DNA of 64,000 nucleotides from Perna viridis (taxonomy: Eukaryota): NCBI GenBank assembly GCA_037379345.1, contig CM074522.1:14074001-14138000 (forward strand), given 5' to 3'. Each line of letters begins with the position of its first letter. Positions within the stretch are counted from its first letter, which is position 1. The notes under the pieces were generated by a model that saw only the letters and a list, made by a program, of their open reading frames with translations, did not search any database and was not told the DNA's origin. Made by a program: the position numbers and the translations under genes. Below are positions 5,020-58,039 of the stretch, piece by piece.

Positions 5020-6056
5020 ACCCACGACTACTCCCTTGAATATCTGAATGTCTGAAGCACAGCAGTTATCTATAATATCCAATCCCTAAAGTGAAATCCT
5101 GGTCCAGTCCTTTCAAATGTCTGAATGTCTTAGACAAAGCAGTAACCAATTCCACCCACCCTAACCAGAAATCCTGGACCAGTTCCTTCAAATGTCTGAA
5201 TGTCTTAAACAAAGCAGCAACCAATTCATACCATTCCTAACCAGAAATCCTGGATCAGTGCCTTCAAATGTCCGAATGTCTTAGACAAAGCAGAAACCAA
5301 TTCCACCCACACTAACCAGAAATCCTGGATCAGTGCCTTCAAATGTCTGAATGTCTTAGACAAAGCAGAAACCAATTCAACCCACCCTAACCAGAAATCC
5401 AGGACCAGTTCCTTCAAATGTCAGAATGTCTTAGACAAAGCAGTAACCAATTCCACCCACACTAACCAGAAATCCTGGACCAGTTCCTTCAAATGACTGA
5501 ATGTCTTAGACAAAGCAGAAACCAATTCCACTCACCCTATCCAGAAATCCTGGATCAGTGCCTTCAAATGTCTGAATGTCTTAGACAAAGCAGAAACCGA
5601 TTCCACCCACCCTAACCAGAAATCCTGAATCAGTGCCTTCAAATGACATAGTAGTAACTAATTCAACCCACTCCTGACCAGAAATCCTGGACCCATGCCT
5701 TCAAATGACTGAATGTCTTAGACAAAGTAGTAACCAATTCCACCCACACTAACCAGAAATCCTGGACCAGTGCCTTCAAATGACTGAATGTCTTAGACAA
5801 AGTAGTAACCGATTCCACCCACACTAACCAGAAATCCTGGACCAGTGCCTTCAAATGACTGAATGTCTTAGACAAAGTAGTAACCAATTCCACCCACCCT
5901 AACCAGAAATCCTGGACCAGTGCCTTCAAATGACTGAATGTCTTAGACAAAGCAGTAACCAATTCCACCCACCCTAACCAGAAATCCTGGACCAGTGCCT
6001 TCAAATGACTGAATGTCTTAGACAAAGCAGTAACCAATTCCAACCACCCTAACCTG
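5020..6056. repeat. 75-bp minisatellite, about 13-14 copies
   Basis: Unit AAATCCTGGACCAGTGCCTTCAAATGACTGAATGTCTTAGACAAAGCAGTAACCAATTCCACCCACCCTAACCAG; one copy has an internal deletion near 5648; explains the 25-aa-periodic ORFs. Confidence 0.95.
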
Positions 6057-6553
6057 AGCAATTAACCTTGAGTCATTTCTGATATTGAAAAAACCTATCA
6101 TACTTTACCAACCTCATTACACAGGTATTGGGTACCTGTCAATTGACCTAGTTTCTAATGTCAGCCAATATCAATTAATCAGACATGAATATAACACTGT
6201 ACACCACAGTTGGTTGGAGATTGCACTGCAGTCAGTAAACAATATAGCACAATGCATCCATAATCTAATTGATTAGAGAATTGGTTATGTTTGATACAGA
6301 ATTGTTTTCTCATCTATCTGGCTGGTAGTGACAACAACCAATCTAATTAAATGAATTTCAAAGTCATTCAAATTATATAGATGAAAAATAATAACGTCAA
6401 GATGACTCAAAAACTGATATTTTAAGGGTTTGTAATGATATGATACATCCTATGATTAAAATCAATAATGAAAATCATCAAGGGCAACCATGTAAATAGA
6501 TGCATGTAATAATTGTAGAGATATCTACTGTTGCTAAGTACAAGAAAAACTGA

Positions 6554-14879: not shown

Positions 14880-15069
14880 CTTTTACATATGCCTTTCAGC
14901 CAAGTGTCTATGGATTTGAAATGGTACTGTGTGTTGGTAAAACTTTTGGCATTAAACTGATAATTGTCCCAGATTTGAACTTTGCCATTGTTCCATCTGG
15001 CACCGATAGTTTTAGGTCCTTCTCCAAGCCAAATCTCAACATGGGTCATGAAATGCTTTTGGTTTGTAG
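14880..15069 (-). CDS. NlpC/P60-domain protein, coding exon 4 (contains catalytic His: MTHVEIWLGEGPKTIGARW...DTWLKGICK)
   Basis: Acceptor TTTCTTTTCAG|, donor AG|GTTAGT; phase 1 in, phase 2 out; HVEIWLGEG aligns with the canonical HVGIYLG.G; His codon at 15043-15041. Confidence 0.92.
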
Positions 15070-15513
15070 CTGAAAAGAAATCACAGTGAGGTGTAAAAGT
15101 CTTTTTTAAGTGACTCATTTGTAATTTTCTTTGCAATCTTTCCATATTGGAATTTCAATTCTCTAATTTTGCTTCAATTTTCATACCGCTTGACCGGTGT
15201 GGAAAAAAATATTCTCATCACTAGTGACTTTTTTTGTTCTCAGAGTTCGATTGGCTTAGAAATCGATTGTCTTGGACTCAATCTTGAATTGCCTCAAATG
15301 CCATTGTAGTTGATAATTTTGGTGTTTTCTTACCTTAAATAAGAATTATGAAGGGACTCAGGAAGATTTGAAGTGAAAAAATGTTTGAAAGCATCTGGTT
15401 TCTTTTGTTTGGAATGTTTGCATTTGTGTGACGTCAACATGTTTCCTACAAATCGAAATCATAACGTTTTGCATGCTTTTCATTTTTGGGCATTTTTGAG
15501 GCATTAGAGAAAC

Positions 15514-15672
15514 AGAATCTACACTCAAAGCTTTTTGACTATGAATTTCTCACATCTCATGAAATAAATTTTATAGTTTGAATAGCTCGGCAATCCTCGC
15601 GATAAAAACTATAAAATTTATTTCACTTGATGTGAGAAATTCCATAATAAACTCGTTATCGTTGTAGATTCT
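15514..15672. repeat. Foldback (long inverted repeat) element
   Basis: Arms GAATTTCTCACATC...TGAAATAAATTTTATAGTTT (15543-15579) and AAACTATAAAATTTATTTCA...GATGTGAGAAATTC (15606-15642); outer pair AGAATCTACA / TGTAGATTCT. Confidence 0.8.
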
Positions 15673-15701
15673 ATATTTAATGGCTTTAATCAACCAATAA
15701 G

Positions 15702-15784
15702 AACTCAGAACTGGTACCTATCAAATACACCTACCAAGAGTAAACTCAGAACTGGTACCTATCAAATACACCTACTAAGAGTAA
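15702..15784. repeat. Tandem duplication of about 42 bp
   Basis: AACTCAGAACTGGTACCTATCAAATACACCTACYAAGAGTAA occurs twice. Confidence 0.9.
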
Positions 15785-18700
15785 CAGAACAAGATGATAA
15801 AAAAATGTTTAAGAACGTTTGAATATATCTTTAAAGGAGAAAAAAAAGTCCTGACAGACAACATGCCAAAGGGATGAAATACTAGTATCAATATTTCACA
15901 GCCACATTAGTTTTGGTTTTCACTTCCATATAAAGTAAGTTTTATACAGGCAAAAAAGGAATAATTTTATAGAAGTACACTAAAAATGTTTATCTAGATA
16001 AGCTGGATTGTGGAGTCTCACAATTTGAGTGAGACTCATACATTTTGAAGCTGATTTGGTGGGATTTTGTTTTTCTTTGATATTTCATTTTTCGTCTTTG
16101 ATCTATCAAAATTTTACCAAAACATGCATGTCTCATGAAATCTTGTCAGTCCATGATCCATGATATCGTTGAATATTTTATTAAAAACTTGCCCAACCAA
16201 AACCATATCTAGTAAGAGAAGCAGCTGAATCTACCTTACAACAGCTGCAGGACAAATGCATTGTTCTATAGCCATTAAAACAGGTGTCACACACTTAACT
16301 ACAAATTACAAAATGTTATATTCCACAGATGAATGCATTCGACTAAAATTTCATGTATAATGTTGAATTTTTTGTAGTTTTGTACACATATAATTACAAT
16401 TGTATTTGATCAACTACAAAAACGTTGATTGTTCTGAACAATTTAAACTATGAGAACAGGTTAGTAGGATTATGTATCACTTAACAAATGAATATGCTGC
16501 AACAACAAATTTGGAATTAAATTGATTGATATAAGAAGTGCACAAGTAAAACAAAGAGATCCTTGATACTTTAATATCCTTAAATAAGTTATTTGGCAGC
16601 CATTTGGTCTCTTTTATCTAGCATCTTGACTTAAAACTTTTGGCTAAACTTCAGTTGTGCCCTACTCTAAATATGTTTCATAAACTCCAACTTGAGTGCC
16701 TTTCTGCACATATTTCATTCCATCTAGGGGATAAAAATTAATATGGATGTCTAATATCAATAAATCTGAATTAGTTCTATAAAAAATCTTTTATGATGAG
16801 AAATTACTACACCAAGTTTAACTACGATATAGAAATAATATGGTTAACCATATACAATGTATACACCATATAAAACTATCCATCGTAGAAAATAGAAATT
16901 AAAAATCGACCCATCAACCATTAATTCTGTTAAGTTTTTGGTTGTCACAAACATTTTCAATTCCTTGGCCTCAATTTTGGACATCAGAGGATATTCATTT
17001 TCACAAGCCTTATAACCTAATCTAAACCCATATGAAGTAATAACATGACTATTTCAGTCCTTGTTTTAACAAAAATCTTTCACATTTACATCCGGTCATA
17101 TCCCAAAATAAAACTTTTTCCACAATGGTAGGTTGTGAAGTGTGTTGTTTAACAAATGACTACGACCCTGAACCTAAATATAACATTACTATAAATTTCA
17201 GTCTCGAGGACTTAACAGTATTGTACCTAGTACAAAGGTGACTTATTTCAAACTGAGAAAATGGCTGTCCTTACACATGAAAGAAATAACATGAATGCTT
17301 GGTTAAGAATTTAACCTCTTTATACATGCTACCGTTTAATCACAGCTTATTAAAAAGGTATTTTGTTTATTGTTAAATAGTTTTGTTGCTAAACTGCAGT
17401 TGGTTTAAAGTGGCACTTTTACTTCTCAACCAACAGACTATAACTAGAATAATTACACTACAATACTGTAACCAAGTGGAAATACTATTGTCACTATTGA
17501 CTCTTTCAGCCTTCCTTTATAGCTTTTATGAGGCAGAATATTATATTTGTATGCAGTCCTTTCATGATTTCGACTTATCTAGGGTGTTTTATGACAGTCT
17601 GTATTTTTTGCCATATCTTATGAAAATAATATAATTTTGTACATAAAAACCTTAAATTTTGTGACTTTTAACATAGAAATATTGTGAATACCTTAATATA
17701 AGATATTTACAATCCTCAGAGCATTTTTTGTAGTCAAAGTATGTTGAAATTAAGGAGAATCTGTGGAGATAAAACACCTCTGTGATTTATCTCCCTTTTT
17801 CAATACAGTCTCATTCATTCTTGTTAATTTTTTTGAAAATCAGGAATATTACGGAATCCTTGGCAAAAGTAGGAATGATTTCATAACAGAATATAACTAA
17901 AATAATTCAGAGATGCAAATACTACTTCAACCTTCCATCAACATCTCCCCACTCCACCTTAAACAATATGAAATGAACACCATATAGAAGAGAATACTTT
18001 TAAAGAAAAATAAACCCATGAACTAAATCAGTTGGGCATCAATGTACCAGGCATCCAGTTCCATCTATTTTCTACCACACAATTTTATGAATCATTTGTT
18101 CAAAATAACAATACCACTAATTGGAAGAGTAATCAAGGGAACCAAGGTTATAGCGGAAATCAAAAGAATGTAATCCAGGGACAAAGACCAGACATGGAAA
18201 ACAGACAAACACAACAAAGAACATAAAGTAAAATAATACATACAAAGTAACAAAAGTAAACGAACAACTCCGACTCCACTAAAATATTAATTTTAGTTTA
18301 AATATGGATTATTTGGCCCTTTGATGAAGGTCTGAAACAGATATTTTATTCAAAACCTTGCTTCTTACTACAAATAGTAAATTAAAAACAATTTCAAATG
18401 CAAGCTAGTTCCTGATATACATGTATATTTAGTATTCAAATATCAAATGAAGTTGTTCGGTTTACCTGTATGTGAAATTTTTTTTGGACTTTTTATTTCA
18501 TTACAATTATTATTTTTCATCAAACAAGGGTCATTACACTTATTGATTCAAATCTCATTAAACTAGACCCAAGTTTAATGAACCAATGTACAATCCCTTC
18601 AGAATTCCATATAAAGCATTCCCTATTTGCATTTCACATTTTTTCCCAAATAATTCTTCATGACTTTGTCATGGAAACACATCAAAGAATTTTAATTCTG

Positions 18701-19925
18701 AAAAATATATCAATTTTTTCCCTCCCGACTTTATTTAAACTCCTTTCAAGTGGGAGTAACAAAGGATATTGAAACTGTACCCTGAGGTCAAGTGCTTACA
18801 CACTTTCCGTGATTTGGATTCAAAAACTTATATTTACATTTACAATGTACCGGAATATAAATCATTAACATCGATTCTTGCTGAATAATGCAAACACTTC
18901 ATACTGTAGAAGTATCATTACAATCAACATAAACACAGCTAAAACAGTTAGGTACTTTTTTCCCTACTGAACAATTACATCTGAATCATGATATTGTATT
19001 TTTTTTAATTGCAATCAAAAGTTTATTGGAAGAAACCAGACACATTCTAAGTCCTTTCCATGTAAAAGTGCATTAGATAACAATGTAGGAGAAGGGTTGA
19101 AAAACTAGATGGTCTGCCATAGACAAAGAAAGTCATAATGAAAGAGTAGAATGTTCTAGAATGTTCTATTTAGTGGAATTTGTCAGGAAATATGTCAATC
19201 TACCTTATTGTAAAGACCGTGCAGTTTAATTTGCAAATCTTTTTCCCATTTATTACTAATCATGCACTCTTCGATATATATCTTTATGAGGACAAGATGG
19301 GTTATTGGTTGACTGTATTTCAGAGAATTTGCATGAAACCTTCATTCATAAATCACCTTTAGTAACAACTGTGACTTTGACTAAAAATCATAAATCTTTT
19401 TTCCATCATATAAACTCTATTCATTTATGACCATTATAAAATGGGAAAAACTCTACATATCAAACAGAATGAGAAAAGGACAACGTATAATAAGATCCAT
19501 ATTAGCCTCCATGCATGACTGGAAATAAGTTTTTTCTGTTGTTTAGAATGTTTAATGAATGATTTAACATGTTCAACCACATTTATAAGCATATCATCTT
19601 TCAATGATTGAAAATTTCCCAAATTAAGTGTGTTGTTTTTGGCAGATTTTAGGCTTTCATAAAACTGAAAATTCATGAAATTGTGAAAATTTGTAACCTT
19701 ATTTAACAAATTCTATTTAAGTGTATATTTCATTTTTGTCACTTACTTCCAACTTTTTTTTATCTTGAAAAAATCGGGGGCTAAATATGGCCCTTATCAT
19801 ACCTCATCCTCAGTGACAAGAATTTATTCTACACCAACGTATTAGTATTAGACTTTTAGTCAAGATACCTACAACTTTCATGTCACAAGACTCTGTCTTA
19901 ATAACAGAACTTGAAATAAACTTAC

Positions 19926-20129
19926 ATTTAGGGTTTACATATGTGCCTGACATGAAAACAAGGTCTCCAGCTTTCATCTCTTCCTCTTTGATCGTGTGTG
20001 GCAGTGTATCGTACATGTATGCTTGATTCCATGGTCCTATAACAAACCCAAAGTCTTTAGCTAGATCTCGCACAACTTGCCTTACAAGGCCACAGCAGTC
20101 CAAAAATAACTTGGAATGGTACTCTTCAG
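19926..20129 (-). CDS. NlpC/P60-domain protein, coding exon 3 (contains catalytic Cys: LFLDCCGLVRQVV...EMKAGDLVFMSGTY)
   Basis: Long polypyrimidine tract plus TTTCAG| acceptor, T|GTAAGT donor; phase 1/1; DCxG and xGDLVF motifs; Cys codon at 20097-20095. Confidence 0.93.
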
Positions 20130-20732
20130 CTGAAAAAAAAAAGAAAAAAAAACATGACAAGATTGCAGGATGTATTTATCTGCAAAATTGGTTAAGTTTT
20201 CTTTCTTATAACTATCTAAGATTATAAGGTCTCCAGCTATTGTTTTGACAAAGACAAAAACAAATTGGCAATTGTCATAAGCAAAAAAACATTAGATGTT
20301 GACAATGATGTTGCCAGTTAAAAGAAAGCAGAATTTGGAGGTCTTGGCACCACATCTAACTCAAATTTGATGTTTGTAATGATAGTCCTGATCAAAACTG
20401 TACTAATGAGGCTTCCAAGAATGATTTCAATAATTCTAAACTAATTTAATTACTTTAATAAATCTTTCAACAACTTCCAGTAGGCAGAAGATAAATTTGA
20501 TACCCACTTGCATCTGTGTAATTGCATGTAATGCCAAATTGAGGATAACTTACTCATTTCAAATCTTTTCAAGATTGCCAAACAGATAGTTAGGGAATAT
20601 ATCTGGTAGAACTTAAAAGAAAAGGCTACATATAAGACATCATGAAGCTGCCTGATTATTACAGAGACTGGAACAATTATCAAGTTTACATGGCTTTATA
20701 CAAAAATATTCTAGATGTCATGGACGTAGCCA

Positions 20733-20942
20733 TACTGTGAAAGTACTTTAATTCTTGGATACCAATTTTTGTGGATTAGGGAAGAAAACACAAGTTCGTG
20801 GATTCTTGAATTGTGGTTTTGAGGTTTTCACTATACACGTCAATGAAAATTACCTTTTCATTGGGAACCAAATTTCGTGGTTTGGCCTACCCACGAAAAC
20901 CACAAAAATTGGTACCCACTGAACAGTAGTACTTTCACAGTA
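20733..20942. mobile_element. TA-flanked MITE
   Basis: Perfect TIRs TACTGTGAAAGTACT / AGTACTTTCACAGTA. Confidence 0.8.
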
Positions 20943-21771
20943 TTTAACATAAAATCTGTCCCCCTGCTTACATTGTTCTTGTTCCTATTCCAATAGAAAC
21001 CTAACTACTTAACAAATTAGCACTGTTTGTACTTTTATAAAATGTGGACTGAAAATATTTAGTCTTTCAATAATGACAGCATTATAGACAAACACTCCAA
21101 AGAAACAGAAAAAGCAAAAAGCATCAAAGAAATCACCATAAAGAAATTTGTCAACATCAAACAAATAGTGAATTTCTTCTCCAAACTACAAACCCATATT
21201 TAGATAAATACAGTTAATTTTCTATGGTCCTTTTAAAGCATTTTTCAAACTCTTATGATCTGCACTACTTTGTTAATTGCAAAATCATGTAAGATGCCAT
21301 CTACTCAATTTGTAGTGGAAACCCCGTAAGACGAAAAATAATTACGGTCCTTTGAAGTAGTTTTATATCTACAGGCTCACAACCAATCAATAAAGTAACA
21401 TATACAAGATTTCCTGTCCCTTTAATTGAAAATAAAATTAAAAACTTAGAACAGAACTGGATTTTAGAATATGGAATAGGTTTGGTTTTGTATACTCATT
21501 ACAACATTATCACGGACATTTAAGCAAAACACAGATGATAAGTTGATTTAGTTTGGGTGTCCACCTTCCCAACCATACAACCATACACACATACTGGCAA
21601 AAAGACAGTCAATTCAATAAAAATTTGCCTGTTTCAAATTTGTACCAAAGTCTGTCAAAAGATAAACTATTCTAGCCATAGATAACAGTTCTAAAGTATA
21701 GTCTAATATTAATGATGGCTTCCTTGTTTTTGTGGGTATTGTTAAAACAGACTATAAATTGAAGTCAAAAT

Positions 21772-22245
21772 AAACAAGAGGCTCCAAGGAGCCTGGTGAA
21801 AATTTCTTTCAATGTCTTTCAATGGCAATAAAATTAACAAGAAGTAGTCTAACAATTCCAACTCAAGAAGACTTTGGTAGGATTTATCATAAGGACCATC
21901 ACATGGCTTAACAAATTAAAATAAAAATTTGACCACCATCATGCTCAACACTTTAACCCTCTGTCAGAATTTGGCTAAACCTTATGGTTTTGGAGATATA
22001 TGCGAAAAACTATAGTCTGACCCCTATGTTCTATTTCCAGTAACAACAGTCATTTTTTTGATGGATCAAAAAAATAAACACAACTTTTGTGCAAGATACC
22101 CTAAAGAACATATGTGCAAAGTTTCATGTAATTCCGCTCAGAGGAGGAAATTTTTGAAAAATTGTTAACGAACGACGACGACGACGACGACGACGGACAG
22201 CACGTGATGGCAATAGCTCACCTGGCCTTAGGCAAGGTGAGCTAA
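21772..22245 (+). mobile_element. Pearl/CvA-type (Helentron-like) non-autonomous element
   Basis: AACAAGAGGCTCCAAGGAGCCTG start, core repeat, (GAC)n at about 22172-22195, and 3' hairpin AGCTCACCTGGCCTTAGGCAAGGTGAGCT. Confidence 0.7.
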
Positions 22246-22554
22246 GAAGGCAAAATCAATTATGGTAACCCAAAGTTGAAAATTCAAAACCCCTCCCAAG
22301 AAATACTCCACAAAATAATGAAAATGAACCTTTCTTTTGCACCAACTCGCCAAAACTCTTCTCAGTATATATTCAAACAAACTTTAAATTTTCCTTTACC
22401 CAAATTGTTTCAATAATACTTTTACCACTGTAACCTTGGTTCCCTTGATTACTCTTTCAATTTCTTTAATTTTCCTTTTAAAGCATAAGAGGGATACTTA
22501 TGAAGAACTAAACATTAAAATATCTACACCATATAGAGGAAGGTGCATACTTAC

Positions 22555-22705
22555 TGTCTTTTGTCCAATATTTCCTAGCGTATGGAATACCAAAGTACTT
22601 CTTGGCCTGGTTTATAAATTTTCTTCGTAGTTCCTGCTGAAACTTTGGATTTTTCTGTCGTTTTAATCTTGCCTTTCTGACCTTTTTCTGTTTTGCTATT
22701 TCTTT
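22555..22705 (-). CDS. NlpC/P60-domain protein, coding exon 2 (KEIAKQKKVRKARLKRQKNPKFQQELRRKFINQAKKYFGIPYARKYWTKD)
   Basis: Acceptor TTCATTGTAG|, donor A|GTAAGT; 151 nt open frame; AKKYFGIPY matches the N-terminal A..YLG.PY motif of NlpC/P60. Not in the ORF track. Confidence 0.9.
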
Positions 22706-35465: not shown

Positions 35466-38400
35466 TTTTTTAAACAAAACCCTTCAGCCCTAAGTTTCTG
35501 TTTTAGCCAATAGCATTTTACATTACCTTTTTCATCATTTTCTGTGTCCCATTATCATAATCCTATAATTAACAAAAAGATAAATTGCATTTTCTTTGTA
35601 CCTCTGGTCACCAGTACATAGTAACTCAGAAGTTAGGTTTAAACCAGTTTAATTCACATTCTAAATTGAAGTTTTTTTCCCTACAGAAGTAAATGCCTTC
35701 TCCTGTTCCAAAGTTCAAAGAGGTATAACTCCCACAAAATTCAGTGGATCATAAATTCCTGGAAATATGCACAACTACATACCATGTCTTCATTACAAAC
35801 AAAGTTTCATGAAATCTATGCAACAGTTTCTGAGAAGATGTACTTACAAAAAAGGGATGGGCAGACAGATGGTCAGGACAAAAACAATACATGTATGTCT
35901 CCCCACTAAAGTGAAGGGAGGCAAAATTGCATTCCCCCCATAAATCACATTTATTATTGCCTTTTAGGTGGCATGAGATTAGTACAATACTACTCAGTTA
36001 CAGTTTAGTTTCGAAACATTTCATTACATGTATTTTTTACTTCCACAAGGTTACAGTATTGCTGGAAGAGTGACATACATTACAGAGCTGTGGTAAATAA
36101 TATAATCTTTCATACCTAACTTGCAAATGAGTACACTGAAACAGGAAAAATAAACAGCTACACTTTAAAAGAAGTCTCACAACTCTGTGAAGAAAAAAAT
36201 CAGAAAAAAATTAAAGAGACTTTGAGTTATCATATAAAGTATGAAAAGAGGTAAACAATTACAGGTACACCCAATACATGTAATATGCGTGTCTGCAGAT
36301 GAGTGTATATAAATTATGCAAAATTTTCTTTCAAAAATGTTGCCAAAACCTCAACTAAAATTATTTTACCCATTTCATAATCAAGCTACACCCACTAATA
36401 TTACAAAATACTGTCAGGTAAAGATGAATACTTGGAATAGCAACATACTGATGATAAACCACAAAGCTGACCTACCATAGCCTACTCATCTAGCCAGAAC
36501 AAGTATCAGCTTGCATAGAAAACCACCTCAGATCAGAACTGACTCTCAACACAGTTCAATTTCCTATAAAGATCATTAGAAAGCATTTAATTGAAAAACC
36601 TACAAAAGTTTGTCACATTTATTCTTGAACTTTCAAAGATTTTGAAAGTGCAAATAGGCCAGGATGGAAAAAAATAACTTTAAAGGAAAGATTAACACCT
36701 CTTTAAGATATATATCAAGCCCCAAATCAATGCATTACAAGTGACATCAAAGACACACCTTGAGGCTGACAAAAGTAAGAGACTGTTTATGATAAGGTCT
36801 TCCAGAAGTAAGTGTTATTCATTTATCACCACTAAATTTTAGGTGATATAAGGTACATGTACGTCCAATATAGCAAAATAAAACAGAGTTAACAAAAAAG
36901 AAAACTGTCAGACACACCTAAAAGGCTAATTTGATGAAAAAATCTAAATTCAGTAATCATTATTTACTCAGAATAAAAAATGAGGTTTAGACAAGGATTT
37001 TCAATGTGATACATGTACATTCTATGCCCTATTATTTTTTTATGTATTAAGGGTTTGTCTATCCCCCCTTTTTTCATGTTTTAAATAATTATTTCTGCTA
37101 CACCAAGCCAAGCAAATAATATAACACTAAATTTGTCAAAAACAATATTTTTTTTAAACCTACAACTTAGCATAGAAACAAGAAACCAAAAATTATAGTT
37201 TATGTGAATTTTTTAACAATGGTTGAATCTTTCATATCCATGACATTTGTCAGGATTTTTGTCACCAATCCTTCATGAAATCACTCTATTCAATCAAGTA
37301 AGAATGTGAGGACATGTACCCCAGATCATGTCTAACTGAGGTAATTATCTCCCCTTTTAATCCAGTATTAAAAGGAAACCAGTCAGAGATATTATCATGT
37401 CATAATAATTAACCCTCAAACTTCAAGGACAACAATTGTAAAAATTCTTTTAACAGCATAAGGTTAAACAGTACTAAGGCCAGAGTTTAGTAGATTTTAC
37501 ACATGGTTAGGGAAATATAAAGACCCCCTGTCAGAAACTGATCATCAAATTAATTTGGACCCCACTCAATATGACATGATTTTAAATAAATAAGTGGGTA
37601 CTTAGTGACAAAAGACTTTTATAAGCATGAACATTTTATCAAGACTTTGTCCTGATCACCTAGCAGGAAAAGAATGTATTTGTAAATCATTTTAAAGAAT
37701 AGAGATTTTTTGTTGTAAAATAGAATTTTGAAAAAGAAGATGCTATTAATGTGTTGAAAGAAGACTTTAAATTTTCCTGAGCCAAACTTTAAAAAAAAAA
37801 AGAAATTTTTATCCACCATTTAGAAGTTGGGGCCGAACTAATTGTTTTTAGTAACAATTGTTATTGGACCCCTGCCAAGCTTATTCTTTCAGGAAGGTGT
37901 AAGCTACAGGACAGATTAGGTAAAAAACAAAATGAGAAAAGTTTTTTTCTGCTCAAGACCGTTCATTAAACTGCTGCTATGGAATATATAATGATTGATA
38001 CCAACAATACCGAACCAAATGTAAAACTAGGACAAAAGGAAAAACATTGAGCAGCATCTTTAAAACTAGACATACAAGATGGATTTTACATAAAACAATA
38101 CATCAACAGAACTAAAAAAACAGTAGGAATTATTATATGAAGGACTCTGGTACAAATGAAACATACAAAGATAACACATCCACAGTGCAAACTTAGAAAT
38201 TTTCTCGGCCAAAATTAAGATTCTACAATTAGTGCAAGAAATAACAGATCAGATTCATTTCATCAACAATTAACCATTTCACAACATAATAATGCCTGTT
38301 AACCAAGCCATCTCTTCTACCATAGTTACAGGTACATAACTCTCAGACCTTTGAGTAATTCAATTGTGCTAGTGCTGAATCAACTTATTGGCTCCCTCAC

Positions 38401-43298: not shown

Positions 43299-43439
43299 CT
43301 GTCTTGCCTTTTTAAATTTTATGAAAGACTCTTGAAGATTTGACTTGCATCCGTCTCCAAAGTCAATGGTAAATGCTTCTTTCTTTTTCTTTGTCACATG
43401 TGCGTTCTGTTTGTTAGTATCAATGACATTGTCTGCCAT
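43299..43439 (-). CDS. NlpC/P60-domain protein, coding exon 1 (MADNVIDTNKQNAHVTKKKKEAFTIDFGDGCKSNLQESFIKFKKARQ)
   Basis: ATG at 43439 next to a CpG-rich promoter; 141 nt (47 codons); donor CAG|GTAGGA, phase 0, matching the phase-0 acceptor of exon 2 across a 20.6 kb intron. Confidence 0.75.
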
Positions 43440-52529: not shown

Positions 52530-55500
52530 CATGTATATAGCTGTCAGAGACCTTTGTTCTTCTACCACCTGTCACTAATATGAAGCCGAGACCCTGCCAC
52601 TACTATAAATCCTGTCAGAGACCCAGTCTGTACTATTCCCAGTCACTACTATATAGCTTATGTCAGTAGCATGGCTATACCACTGTCTAACACTTCTATA
52701 TATCATGTCAGGGACCCTGGCTACACCACTGCCTAACACTTCTATAAATCATGTCAGAAACCCTGGCTACACCACTGCCTAATACTTCTATATATCATGT
52801 CAGGGACCCTGGCTATACCACTGTCTAACACTTCTATATATCATGTCAGGGACCCTGGCTACACCACTGCCTAACACTTCTATAAATCATGTCAGAAACC
52901 CTGGCTACACCAATGCCTAACACTTCTATAAATCATGTCAGAAACCCTGGCTACACCACTGCCTAATACTTCTATATATCATGTCAGGGACTCTGGCTAT
53001 ACCACTGTCGAACACGTCTATATATCATGTCAGAGATCCTGGCTATACCACTGTCTAACACTTCTATATATCATGTCAGGGACCCTGGCTATACCACTGT
53101 CGAACACGTCTATACATCATGTCAGAGATCCTGGCTATACCACTGTCTAATACTTCTATATATCATGTCAGGGACCCTGGCTACACCACTGCCTAACACT
53201 TCTATAAATCATGTCAGAAACCCTGGCTACACCACTGCCTAACACTTCTATAAATCATGCCAGAAACCCTGGCTACACCACAGCCTAATACTTCTATATA
53301 TCATGTCAGGGACCCTGGCTATACCACTGTCGAACACGTCTATATACATGTATCATGTCAGAAACCTGGTTATACCACTGTCTTACACTTCTATATATCA
53401 TGTCAGAAACCCTGGTTATACTACTATCTTGCACTTCTTTATATCATTTCAGAGACCGTGGCTGTACCACTGTCTTACTGTTATATATATATATCATATT
53501 AGAGACCATGTCTTTACCACTGTCTTACCGTTATATATATCATGTTAGAGACCATGTCTTTACCACTGTCTAACACTTATATGTAGATGTATCATGTCAG
53601 AGATCCAGGCTATACCACATACCGCTGTCTAACACTTCTATATATCATGTCAGAGACCCAGGCATTCCACTGTCTTACACTTCCATATATCATGTCAGAG
53701 ACCCAGGCTATACCACTTACCTTTGTTTAAACTTCTATATATCATGTCAGAGACCCAGGCTATACCACTGTCTTAAACTTCATATATCATGTCAGAAACA
53801 CTGGTTATACCACTGTCTTACACTTCTATATATTATGTCTGAGGCTCTGACTCTAGCACAATATAACCTGAGAGACCCTAGCTATACAACTGTCTGACGC
53901 TGCTATATAGTCTGTCAGAGATTAAGATTCTATATAGTCATATCAGACACCCTGACTGTACTACCGTCTTTCACTTCTATACTCGACGTACTATATAGCA
54001 TGTCAGAGACCCAAGCTATACTACCGTTTCTAACTAAAATACTCAATTTACTTTATAGCCTGTCGGAAAACCTGGCAATACCACCTTCTGACAATACTAT
54101 ATAGCCTATTGGAGACCCTGTCTTTAACATCGTCTGACGCTACCATGTAACTTGTCAGACACCCTCACTGTATTATCGTCTTTCACTACTATACAATGGA
54201 CTATACAGCCTATCAGGGACACAGGCTGTTCTACCGTCTGGCACTATTATATAGTATGTCAGAGACCCAGCCTGTAGTACCGTCTGACACTGGTAACCAG
54301 TCTGTCAGAGAACACTCAGACTGGCTATTCCACTGTCTGTCACTTCTATATAACCTTTCGAAGACAAAGATCGTACTACCATCTGATAGTACTTTATATA
54401 CATGTCAGACACCATGGTTGTACTACCGTCTGACGCTACTACATATATTTCTAAAAGCAAAGATTGTATTATCATCTGACTACTATATGGCCTATCAGAG
54501 ACTTTGGCTGTTCTACCATATGAAGCCAATACTCAATGTAATAAATAATATTTCAGGGACACAGGCTGTGCTACTATCTGAAACTACTATATAATATCAT
54601 AGCCCCTGGCTGTACAAAAAAGGTATAGCCTATCAGAAACACTGACTATACTACCATCTACCAGAGACCCTGGCTATTCAACTCTCTGTCACTACTATAT
54701 AACCTATCAGAGACCCTGGCTGTACATGTAACCGTCTGACACCATTTACACAGCATGTCAGAACAATGACTGTTCTACCGTCTGATTGTACATCCTTGTC
54801 AGACTTCAGCCTGTCAGAGACCCTGACTATTCTACCGTCTGACCCCACTTTACTACTACATAGCCTGTAGGGAATTTAGGCTGTACTTTCCTCTGATACT
54901 ACTATATAACCTACCAGAGACCCTGGATCTTCCTCTGACAATACACTATAATAAAGCATGACAAAGTCTCTCAATGCATCACTATCTGACAATCTTAAGT
55001 TACTGTATAACTAGCCAGAGACTCTGACTGCACTGCCATCTGACACTACTGTATAGCCTGGCAAAGTTACTGGCTGTACAACCGTCTGAAACATCTATAT
55101 ATCGTGTCAAAAATTTTGGCTGTACAACCTTCTGACACTATTATGATGCGCATGTCAGACCCCATCTGCACTGCCATCTGCCAATAAATAGCCCGGCAGA
55201 GTCCCTGGCTGTACAACCGTCTGATACTACAATGAGACATGTCAGAGACCCAGACTGTACTGCCATCTGACATATAGCATGGCAGAGCCCCTGGCTATAC
55301 AACCGTCTGACACTACTATATACCCTATCAAAGATTAAGGCTGTACAGCCGTCTGAGACTACTATATACCATGTCAAAGATATAGGCTATACAATCACCT
55401 GACACTTCTGTTAAACATGTGAGAGACTATTCTAGCGGAAATCAAAAGAACATAATCCTGATAGGGACAAAGACCAGACAGAGAAAATAGACACACATAA

Positions 55501-56790: not shown

Positions 56791-57267
56791 TCATTCAACC
56801 GTAAATTTCGAAATACCTCTATTTGTCCTTGTAATTGATCGTGGACGCCTTGCCATTGGTCCTACACCATAAATTTTGGCCGAAGACCTCAGTCGTGCAG
56901 TCGGGGAGGCATGCGCATTATATTGAGCCGGAGAACGTCGTCGTCGTCGTATATTAGCATCTTCAGCTCGAATTTTACTAATCATTGTTGGCATTCTTAG
57001 TCTTGCAAAGCCGACGTATCCTTTCATAAACCTCTTGATTTCTCTCCAGTTTGAGTTGGAGACAAGATTTGAATAGTCTTCTAAAAGGCTCGTTAGGTAA
57101 ATGGTATTGTCACTGTTTAAACTTAAACCGTCGTCATTCAACGATTCAACGCACGAGTTGTTATCATCTTCAATGTCGTCGCTGCTATCGAACGACAAGT
57201 CATTTTTAGCTTCAATAACTTTTATAACTTTGACTCCTTTGCTTTTCGAAGATGAACCATTTCCCAT
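56791..57267 (-). CDS. Uncharacterised 158-aa protein with an N-myristoylation-like start (MGNGSS), an acidic segment and an Arg-rich C-terminal part
   Basis: Longest ORF in the window, true ATG, not repeat-derived; bounded by a possible acceptor ATTTGCAG| (exon start 57282) and a donor T|GTAAGT (exon end 56787) just after TGA TAA. Confidence 0.6.
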   Translation of the reverse strand: MGNGSSSKSKGVKVIKVIEAKNDLSFDSSDDIEDDNNSCVESLNDDGLSLNSDNTIYLTSLLEDYSNLVSNSNWREIKRFMKGYVGFARLRMPTMISKIRAEDANIRRRRRSPAQYNAHASPTARLRSSAKIYGVGPMARRPRSITRTNRGISKFTVE

Positions 57268-58039
57268 ATCTCAGTAGAGCATCTGCAAATCAGTTGTACC
57301 ACATTTATATGGGCAGAACAATAGAAAACATGTTTTAAAATATATAACTGCGTTGGGTCCTGAAGGAAAACACACCCGAAGTTCACCAGTTAAGCTTTCT
57401 GAAGGGGTCTATACCTCATATTTTGTCAAAGAAGAGTGTACAGTGATTGCTATATATCTTTATAATTAAGTGAGTGTGAAATGATTTGAACATGCCACGT
57501 TTCCAAAATCTGCATTAAAAATGTCCATACCGAACTTTTGTAGACCAACTAAATCCTTAACGAATTAGAAATGCCGGTATCTAAAAGAATCCCTTGACAT
57601 GCTAAAAATCTGTATACAGCAGTCGTTGAATGAAGCACTTTTTAAGAACTGTGCGTTCTAACCTCTAGGGAAAGCCAACGAAGTACCCAGTTAAAAAGAG
57701 GGCTCGGGGCTTGATGTTTTTTCTCAGGGTACAGAAGTTTGTCGCGTAATAGTTCTCAGGTAATATAAATTGTGTTTTTGTGATATATTTGGTTTTTGTT
57801 ATATCGTGATTTATATATATAAAAAAAACTACTACATATGTCATAAAACTACAGAGACTAGTCATGTGCGACGTACATAAAATTTACTTTTCTTGATATT
57901 ACTTTTGAATACGCAATCAAGCAATTTCGGGAAAAAGCAAACAAACGTGAAAACAAATAACCATAGGAACAAATAATGTAGAAATTGAAGTTTATAGTCA
58001 CGGTTGCCAATGCAAACATAATATTCAAAACTGACTTAC

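Follow-up and report, generated by a model that had tools for sequence, protein, structure and literature searches.

A predicted cysteine peptidase domain of NlpC/P60 fold in the TTLL10 gene of the mussel Perna viridis, and its possible role in removing tubulin glycylation

A tubulin deglycylase was called unidentified in papers from 2014 to 2026 (PMC4230590, PMC11244163, PMC12340829, PMC13308552), and CCP2/3 are described in one of these as being without deglycylase activity (PMC4230590). Among the ligases that write glycylation, the TTLL10 enzyme that has been characterised is that of Xenopus (PMC12340829); Chlamydomonas is described as having neither TTLL10 nor polyglycylation (PMC11244163). 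A ligase and an eraser joined in one chain have been described for trypanothione synthetase-amidase, which carries an N-terminal papain-like amidase and a C-terminal ATP-grasp ligase and hydrolyses the very product that it makes (PMC2427367). Here we analysed a stretch of 64,000 nucleotides of AT-rich animal DNA from the mussel Perna viridis (C12:14074001-14138000, referred to as the window), in which exons on the minus strand encode the N-terminal NlpC/P60-fold domain of the mussel TTLL10 gene, predicted from its sequence to be a cytoplasmic cysteine peptidase. Our leading reading, which we regard as possible though short of probable, is that this domain would take glycines off glycylated tubulin, or off other substrates of TTLL10, thereby undoing the product of the attached ligase.

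A homology-guided model, predicted from DNA and homology, gave an NlpC/P60-TTLL10 gene of 85 kb with 15 exons on the minus strand and a single open frame of 1348 residues. The exons were collinear on the same strand, introns were of the GT-AG type in 14 of 14 cases, and the stop side lay at C12:14032309. Searching with Mytilus homologues by tblastn placed the gene start at 43439 in the window and revealed no TTL exons within these 64 kb; the downstream exons were located by searching the mussel's own genome with the Mytilus trossulus fusion protein P0005, and those of the TTL ligase lie 27-42 kb past the left edge of the window. Residue numbers refer to the full 15-exon model, so that C109, H171 and E177 of the original prediction are shifted by 12 and become Cys121, His183 and Glu189, in the frame in which the catalytic histidine is His187. 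The exons are as follows (window positions unless C12 is given):

43299..43439, minus strand: exon 1, start codon and residues 1-47; tblastn 70-72% to Mytilus homologues; GT donor
35527..35562, minus strand: exon 2, 36 nt, residues 48-59; best AG..GT-bounded match, BLOSUM 54 versus 6 for the runner-up
22555..22705, minus strand: exon 3, residues 60-110; basic helix, first NlpC/P60 helix, G-x-P-Y and the start of an 8-residue insertion
19926..20129, minus strand: exon 4, residues 110-178; DCCG, Arg126, WNQ motif and GD motif; PF00877 match of 23.7 bits
14880..15069, minus strand: exon 5, residues 178-241; His183, His187, Glu189, Gly200, Arg202, Trp234 and Cys239
C12:14073239-14072515, minus strand: exon 6, end of the domain and acidic linker; read-through gives a 485-residue peptidase-only isoform
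C12:14046866-14032309, minus strand: exons 7-15, TTLL10 ligase and tail, by match to P0005

The DCCG, HVE, IGA and PY-insertion motifs of the original prediction were all recovered in exons 3 to 5, on the minus strand and between canonical splice sites; what it had missed were the 36-nt exon (35562-35527), the start at 43439 and ten further exons, which include a complete TTL domain. Exon 2 is variable among Mytilus entries, being present in P0003 and P0005 and absent from P0002. Exon 3 ends in ..PYARKYWTKD, with the codon of the predicted oxyanion residue Tyr101 at 22582-22580, and ARKYWTKDTEEYHSKLFL arises across the 22555/20129 exon junction. The codon of the predicted nucleophile Cys121 is located at 20097-20095, and exon 5 carries HVE at 15043-15035 and IGA around 15004. 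The encoded protein would run from a basic N-terminus through the NlpC/P60 domain (residues ~80-262), an acidic linker (42 D/E within residues 250-345) and the TTL domain to a low-complexity tail. It was identical to P0005 at 162/183 positions of the NlpC/P60 domain and 343/385 of the TTL domain, and the closest named homologues over the DCCG exon were Mytilus proteins (85-87% identity). A second copy of the NlpC/P60 domain was not found in the mussel's own 723-Mb genome, so that the domain appears to be single-copy.

The ligase half was compared with TTLL10 proteins and with the C6 paralog, the one assembled out of about 12 further TTL loci in the genome. Three mammalian TTLL10 proteins scored 390-392 bits against the model and 107-111 bits against this paralog, and together with frog and herring TTLL10 the ranges were 390-428 versus 107-128 bits. 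Identity of the ligase to mammal, frog and herring TTLL10 was 45-47% over about 390-470 residues, and this orthologous C-terminal ligase is what the mussel gene shares with the TTLL10 polyglycylases. Walrus TTLL10 matched five exons of the mussel locus at 40-57% identity, and its best single-reading-frame match was the C6 gene (31%) because that gene is intronless. For the TTL part of a Mytilus protein, scores reached only 33-82 bits when it was compared with solved chains of TTL, TTLL6, TTLL7, TTLL11 and yeast relatives. In a FastTree phylogeny of 43 TTL domains the model fell among molluscs, in an animal group to which vertebrate TTLL10 also belongs, and the animal part of the tree broadly tracked the species tree. 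Moreover, the motifs that we take to be catalytic in TTL enzymes are all present. By these sequence comparisons the mussel ligase is an ortholog of the polyglycylase TTLL10, and glycine-elongating activity can be predicted for it from orthology and the intact motifs. Compared to the TTLL10 of mammals, frogs and teleosts, the mussel gene adds the N-terminal NlpC/P60-fold domain, the acidic linker and a peptidase-only isoform. The C6 gene (C6:46072083-46073051; L007) is an intronless member of the TTL family with an open reading frame of 866 residues, is ~27% identical to TTLL10 and gave the strongest PF03133 match among the genome's TTL loci, of which there are about 13 in all.

With respect to the N-terminal half, exon 4 alone matched the Pfam family NLPC_P60 (PF00877) with 23.7 bits against a cut-off of 23 (E 5e-5), most full-length homologues falling just below this cut-off. 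An AlphaFold model of the homologue P0038, rather than of the window protein itself (78 sequences; predicted local distance difference test score 90.8), matched NlpC/P60 chains with Z 12.6-12.9 and a root-mean-square deviation of 2.4-4.0 over 110-127 residues, and the first model gave a best Foldseek E of 3.6e-5. Matches were much lower to vasohibin, the detyrosinase that is also a papain-fold cysteine peptidase (Z 3.9; PMC10318531), and to the glutathionylspermidine/trypanothione amidases (Z 5.2-5.7), which are of the CHAP type. Judged from these models, the domain has an NlpC/P60 papain-like fold.

Conservation was examined in 173 representatives dereplicated at 80% identity. Y101, C121, R126, Q145, H187, E189, R202 and W234 were invariant (173/173) and N144 (172/173), D120 and C122 (both 171/173) nearly so, while C121, H187 and Y101 were present in all 279 near-full domains and aligned to the DCSG, HVG and PY motifs of 3npf. 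The C40 gamma-D-Glu endopeptidases (YkfC, SagA, LytE and Trichomonas NlpC1) share with the mussel family the fold, the Cys-His dyad, the S1 Tyr and Asp, and the GD motif. In YkfC, gamma-D-Glu is bound by Tyr226, Trp228, Asp237, Ser239 and Ser257 (PMC2954226). The Tyr and Asp are kept in the mussel domain, but Trp228 and Ser239 correspond to Arg103 and Cys122; across the family the former is K, R, E, Q or A, mostly a charged residue, and the latter is Cys in 171/173. The equivalent of Ser257 is ambiguous, being Asn144 or a neighbour, as the registers of 3npf and 4fdy differ. The insertion of about 8 residues proposed after PY was borne out, since Tyr101 to Asp120 spans 19 residues versus 11 from Tyr226 to Asp237 in YkfC (PMC2954226), and HMMER alignment left an 8-column gap against both 3npf and 3pvq.

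The top structural matches being cell-wall endopeptidases, including Trichomonas NlpC1, the domain might have been a peptidoglycan hydrolase of bacterial origin that is used on bacteria, in the manner of the Trichomonas or mite NlpC/P60 proteins. We consider this very improbable, given the broken gamma-D-Glu signature and a gene that is single-copy, intron-rich and fused to a cytoplasmic ligase. Moreover, a crude hydropathy scan detected no hydrophobic signal stretch in the first 45 residues (top 11-residue hydropathy 0.22), Pfam scans of 10 plus 30 homologues detected no SH3b, LysM or other cell-wall-binding domain in these 40 proteins, and a close prokaryotic member was not found in the pattern scan described below. 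The very basic N-terminus without secretion signal that had been claimed for the protein was likewise confirmed, with 23 K/R versus 4 D/E in residues 40-95, and the changed pocket together with the missing signal and wall-binding domain agrees with the non-peptidoglycan role that had been proposed. By fold and dyad the domain belongs to the NlpC/P60 superfamily, and by its pocket signature it stands outside the peptidoglycan C40 enzymes.

The catalytic triad also departs from that of the C40 enzymes. YkfC uses Cys238-His291-His303 (PMC2954226), but the strand after the catalytic His carries no polar third residue in the mussel domain, where Gly200 takes this place and the position is always small (G/A/S in 164/8/1 of 173); this mapping is based on the His291-His303 spacing in YkfC and on predicted strands. 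Strands 131-137 and 144-146 as predicted for P0038 would set E189 facing G200 and H187 facing R202, and migrations of triad residues have precedents among papain-like families (PMC10318531). The spacing, together with the ends of the predicted strands, suggests that Glu189, the invariant residue two positions past the catalytic His, probably completes the triad in place of the usual third residue. Of the two substitutes that had originally been put forward, this glutamate (as Glu177) is a good candidate, being conserved in 173/173, and the histidine (as His171) is not. His183 was found in 152/173 and was rejected as third triad residue, as all 18 of 167 usable representatives without it also lacked C243, and it was absent in none of the 143 sequences with C243 (6 truncated rows were dropped; the relatives are not independent, and a quick tree indicated about 8 changes for the H183/C243 loss). 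Because H183 is lost together with C243, it is more likely that H183, C239, C243 and H246 behave as one unit rather than as part of the triad, most simply a predicted zinc site, which would be a further addition relative to the C40 enzymes.

The small residue at the canonical third position could also fit a domain that has given up catalysis and reads glycylated or acidic tails, thereby regulating or targeting TTLL10, and non-catalytic NlpC/P60 proteins such as RipD do exist. Yet Cys121 and His187 are both kept in 279/279 domains, as enzyme-derived readers rarely do, and a peptidase-only isoform is expressed, which makes a pure reader quite improbable.

Evidence for this isoform came from the runs X21 and X22, which are on record as RNA-Seq, and from contigs of X6 and X10, which are guessed to be RNA. 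Reads of both X21 and X22 covered exon 6 on one strand only, in the orientation fitting minus-strand RNA, and their coverage dropped to zero at the exon-6 acceptor, as expected of spliced RNA. Reads from X22, as well as single contigs from X10 and X6, extended 330-430 nt beyond the exon-6 donor. This read-through reaches a stop at 485 residues, and an ATTAAA hexamer precedes the end of the X10 contig by 12 nt. RNA thus supports a short, peptidase-only isoform in Perna viridis, which appears to be conserved because Mytilus P0003 and P0004 and Logan P0079 end in the same last three residues. The RefSeq isoforms P0072, P0077 and P0090 (Mytilus and Dreissena) begin past the catalytic Cys and would comprise the ligase with a dead peptidase half, but may be annotation artefacts. 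Just upstream of exon 6, intron 5 carries a dispersed repeat of very high copy number, which shows inverted joints and is abundant in RNA runs (L006:3296-3565).

RNA contigs and reads that pass the exon-6 donor and reach what is probably a polyadenylation site, a joining intron of 25.6 kb and the split of the locus in some bivalve annotations (P0003; P0088/P0089) could in turn indicate that peptidase and TTLL10 are two adjacent genes in Perna viridis and that the fused protein is absent, whatever the function of the domain. We regard this as unlikely, since the exon-6 donor and exon-7 acceptor are canonical and in phase. Moreover, RefSeq models join both parts in three Mytilus species (M. trossulus, M. 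galloprovincialis and M. edulis), Mercenaria, Dreissena, Haliotis and Lineus, and fusions are also predicted on short Logan, JGI and ENA contigs of ~2-5 kb. The fused transcript is annotated in Mytilus, and in Perna viridis it is predicted from DNA through a possible in-frame canonical splice.

The original prediction had mentioned fusions of such domains to TTLL ligases in ciliates and suggested a search for NlpC/P60-TTL fusions among homologues. The best 120 of 898 matches from an alignment search and the best 150 of 991 from a representative library did reveal NlpC/P60-TTL fusions in many homologues, as in the mussel gene itself, with TTLL10 as the partner, although none was from a ciliate among the named matches listed. 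A TTL domain was carried by 134/279 near-full domains, counting isoforms and in a set enriched by a TTL-seeded search, and TTL was the sole recurrent partner (12/30 hand-picked long proteins). Named fusions occurred in sponges, cnidarians, molluscs, nemerteans, a brachiopod, echinoderms, a hemichordate and chrysophytes, and among vertebrates in coelacanth, sturgeon, turtles, crocodile and lizards. Named records that stand alone or lack TTL came from rotifers, oysters, amphioxus, a tunicate, Monosiga, Andalucia, Spironema, Chrysochromulina and MAST-4, the last five belonging to flagellated or ciliated lineages. Ciliated model organisms with the domain include sea urchin, Nematostella, Macrostomum and axolotl. 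A short-pattern scan, which misses distant relatives, confirmed no members in 185,579 prokaryotic genomes or among viral contigs. In the ESM Atlas the two nearest clusters were all-eukaryote; a mostly Nucleocytoviricota, unnamed cluster of 190 residues was also noted there (feature score 0.93-0.94).

Within vertebrates, we surveyed the best 120 of 601 matches to coelacanth TTLL10, assigning taxa from names and excluding 4 unnamed Logan rows. The domain scored above 50 bits in 25/39 entries from coelacanth, lungfish, sturgeons, paddlefish, bichir, gar, salamanders, caecilians, turtles, crocodile and squamates, and its tail was still visible in 3 of the 14 without the full domain. Among these same matches, it was found on none of the TTLL10 entries of mammals (0/30), frogs (0/26) or teleosts (0/21). 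In the early-branching teleost Aldrovandia, residues 3-32 of P0376 form a degenerate 18.6-bit remnant, suggesting decay in place. Mammals, frogs and teleosts are separate in the TTL tree, where the sister group of the frogs and that of the mammals both carry the fusion; this points to at least three losses of the domain, as far as annotated TTLL10 proteins tell. The characterised Xenopus TTLL10 was a fragment, and frog entries are without the NlpC/P60 domain.

Taken together, the fusion architecture is real and well supported by sequence, and a function in undoing the ligase's product is plausible. The tubulin link that had been proposed gained from the fusion to a TTLL10 polyglycylase ortholog, and the suggested role on glutamyl side chains found no specific support. 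Within the favoured reading of glycine removal, trimming of Gly-Gly bonds (possible, though we hold it tentatively) is preferred to cutting of the gamma-Glu-Gly branch itself (rather unlikely), because the partner ligase is an elongase that makes Gly-Gly bonds and not one of the initiases TTLL3/8. Cys121 would act as nucleophile on the amide bond and His187 as the base. Glu189 would orient His187, a task that usually falls to the third residue (Gly200 in this protein), and Tyr101 would stabilise the oxyanion. Arg202 or Arg126 might bind the free carboxylate of the terminal glycine, His183, Cys239, Cys243 and His246 might hold a structural zinc, and the basic N-terminal helix could help to bind acidic tails. 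The long isoform would then unite writer and eraser in a single chain, and the short isoform would act as eraser on its own. Removal of a TTL-family modification would make the domain comparable to the CCP/TMCP deglutamylases, vasohibin and the Giardia M20 deglycylases of 14-3-3, although the CCPs and Giardia deglycylases are metallopeptidases, unlike the cysteine peptidase predicted here.

Trypanothione synthetase-amidase offers a plausible precedent by analogy for an eraser-ligase fusion. The glutathionylspermidine/trypanothione synthetase-amidases follow the same logic and order, with an N-terminal amidohydrolase and a C-terminal ATP-grasp C:N ligase (PMC2427367). Their similarity is one of analogy rather than membership, as their amidase is only weakly similar and acts on small molecules, and the ligase families differ (PF03133 TTL in the mussel versus a GSP-type synthetase).

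Several observations weigh against glycine removal by a fused eraser. The only RNA seen for Perna viridis reads through the exon-6 donor to a stop, the X10 and X6 contigs being unbroken there, and peptidase-only entries exist in M. californianus, oysters, scallops, rotifers and amphioxus. In total, the records of 145/279 near-full domains show no TTL partner, some of these being fragments or split models. Protist fusions are unresolved in the TTL tree, which has the C6 paralog as its single outgroup. Furthermore, an eraser is not required, because mammals polyglycylate without the domain on TTLL10, forming long polyglycine chains in bull sperm (PMC11244163), and TTLL10 is reported to limit itself without an eraser (PMC12340829).

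The many members that stand alone would also suit an active peptidase or amidase that acts on another ciliary or cytoskeletal bond, for instance by removing glutamates, by processing acidic tails to free glycylation sites, or on a small-molecule substrate, in which case the fusion merely places the domain beside TTLL10. NlpC/P60 enzymes are mostly gamma-glutamyl-specific, Asp120 and Tyr101 are kept, and glutamylation stimulates TTLL10 (PMC12340829). This alternative seems unlikely, though it deserves serious attention: the equivalents of Trp228 and Ser239 in the gamma-Glu pocket are changed, deglutamylases (CCP, TMCP) are already known, and the single fusion partner that recurs is a glycine ligase. 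Alternatively, the Cys acyl-enzyme might pass glycyl or other acyl groups on without hydrolysis, as a transacylase or transpeptidase. Transfer would be compatible with fusion to a ligase, and the papain-like superfamily holds LRAT, transglutaminases and phytochelatin synthase, the last of which deglycinates glutathione (PMC10318531). Yet the nearest folds are hydrolases and no sequence feature indicates an acceptor site, which leaves this improbable.

If glycine removal holds, this family might be the missing tubulin deglycylase and ancestral TTLL10 a one-chain writer-eraser, accompanied by a second isoform as a source of free eraser. Vertebrates would then have lost the eraser on at least three occasions, in teleosts, frogs and mammals, a scenario that we put forward as conceivable but not as probable. 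Work in mouse, human, Xenopus and zebrafish would then have missed the deglycylase because the eraser was lost from their lineages.

Elsewhere in the window, a tandem repeat array in intron 5 (5200-6060) yields repetitive open reading frames on both strands, whose sub-cut-off Pfam matches look spurious, and GC-richer tandem repeats at 52900-54600 yield long repetitive open reading frames. On the minus strand at 56794-57270, an open reading frame of 159 residues without Pfam match encodes an acidic followed by a basic stretch and could belong to a gene further upstream, as one of its exons; its MGNG start is a possible N-myristoylation start.

Databases label the homologues merely as NlpC/P60-domain or TTLL10-like proteins, and our literature searches found no paper describing the NlpC/P60-TTLL10 fusion, although subscription papers or supplements could mention it. 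Recent papers (PMC12340829, PMC11244163, PMC13308552) still describe the eraser of tubulin glycylation as unidentified, and a small candidate of about 190 residues with a predicted nucleophile to mutate makes the question directly testable. Loss of the domain from the TTLL10 of common model vertebrates would, if true, explain this gap, and the domain would also provide a reagent for stripping glycylation from microtubules. The locus yields a gene model from an animal, RNA that supports a peptidase-only isoform, a pattern of vertebrate retention and loss, and a separation of the predicted roles of Glu189 (triad) and His183 (zinc). Even with another substrate, the domain would define a eukaryotic subfamily of NlpC/P60 proteins that appears not to have been described, has a rearranged triad and is linked, from protists to reptiles, with a ciliary enzyme.

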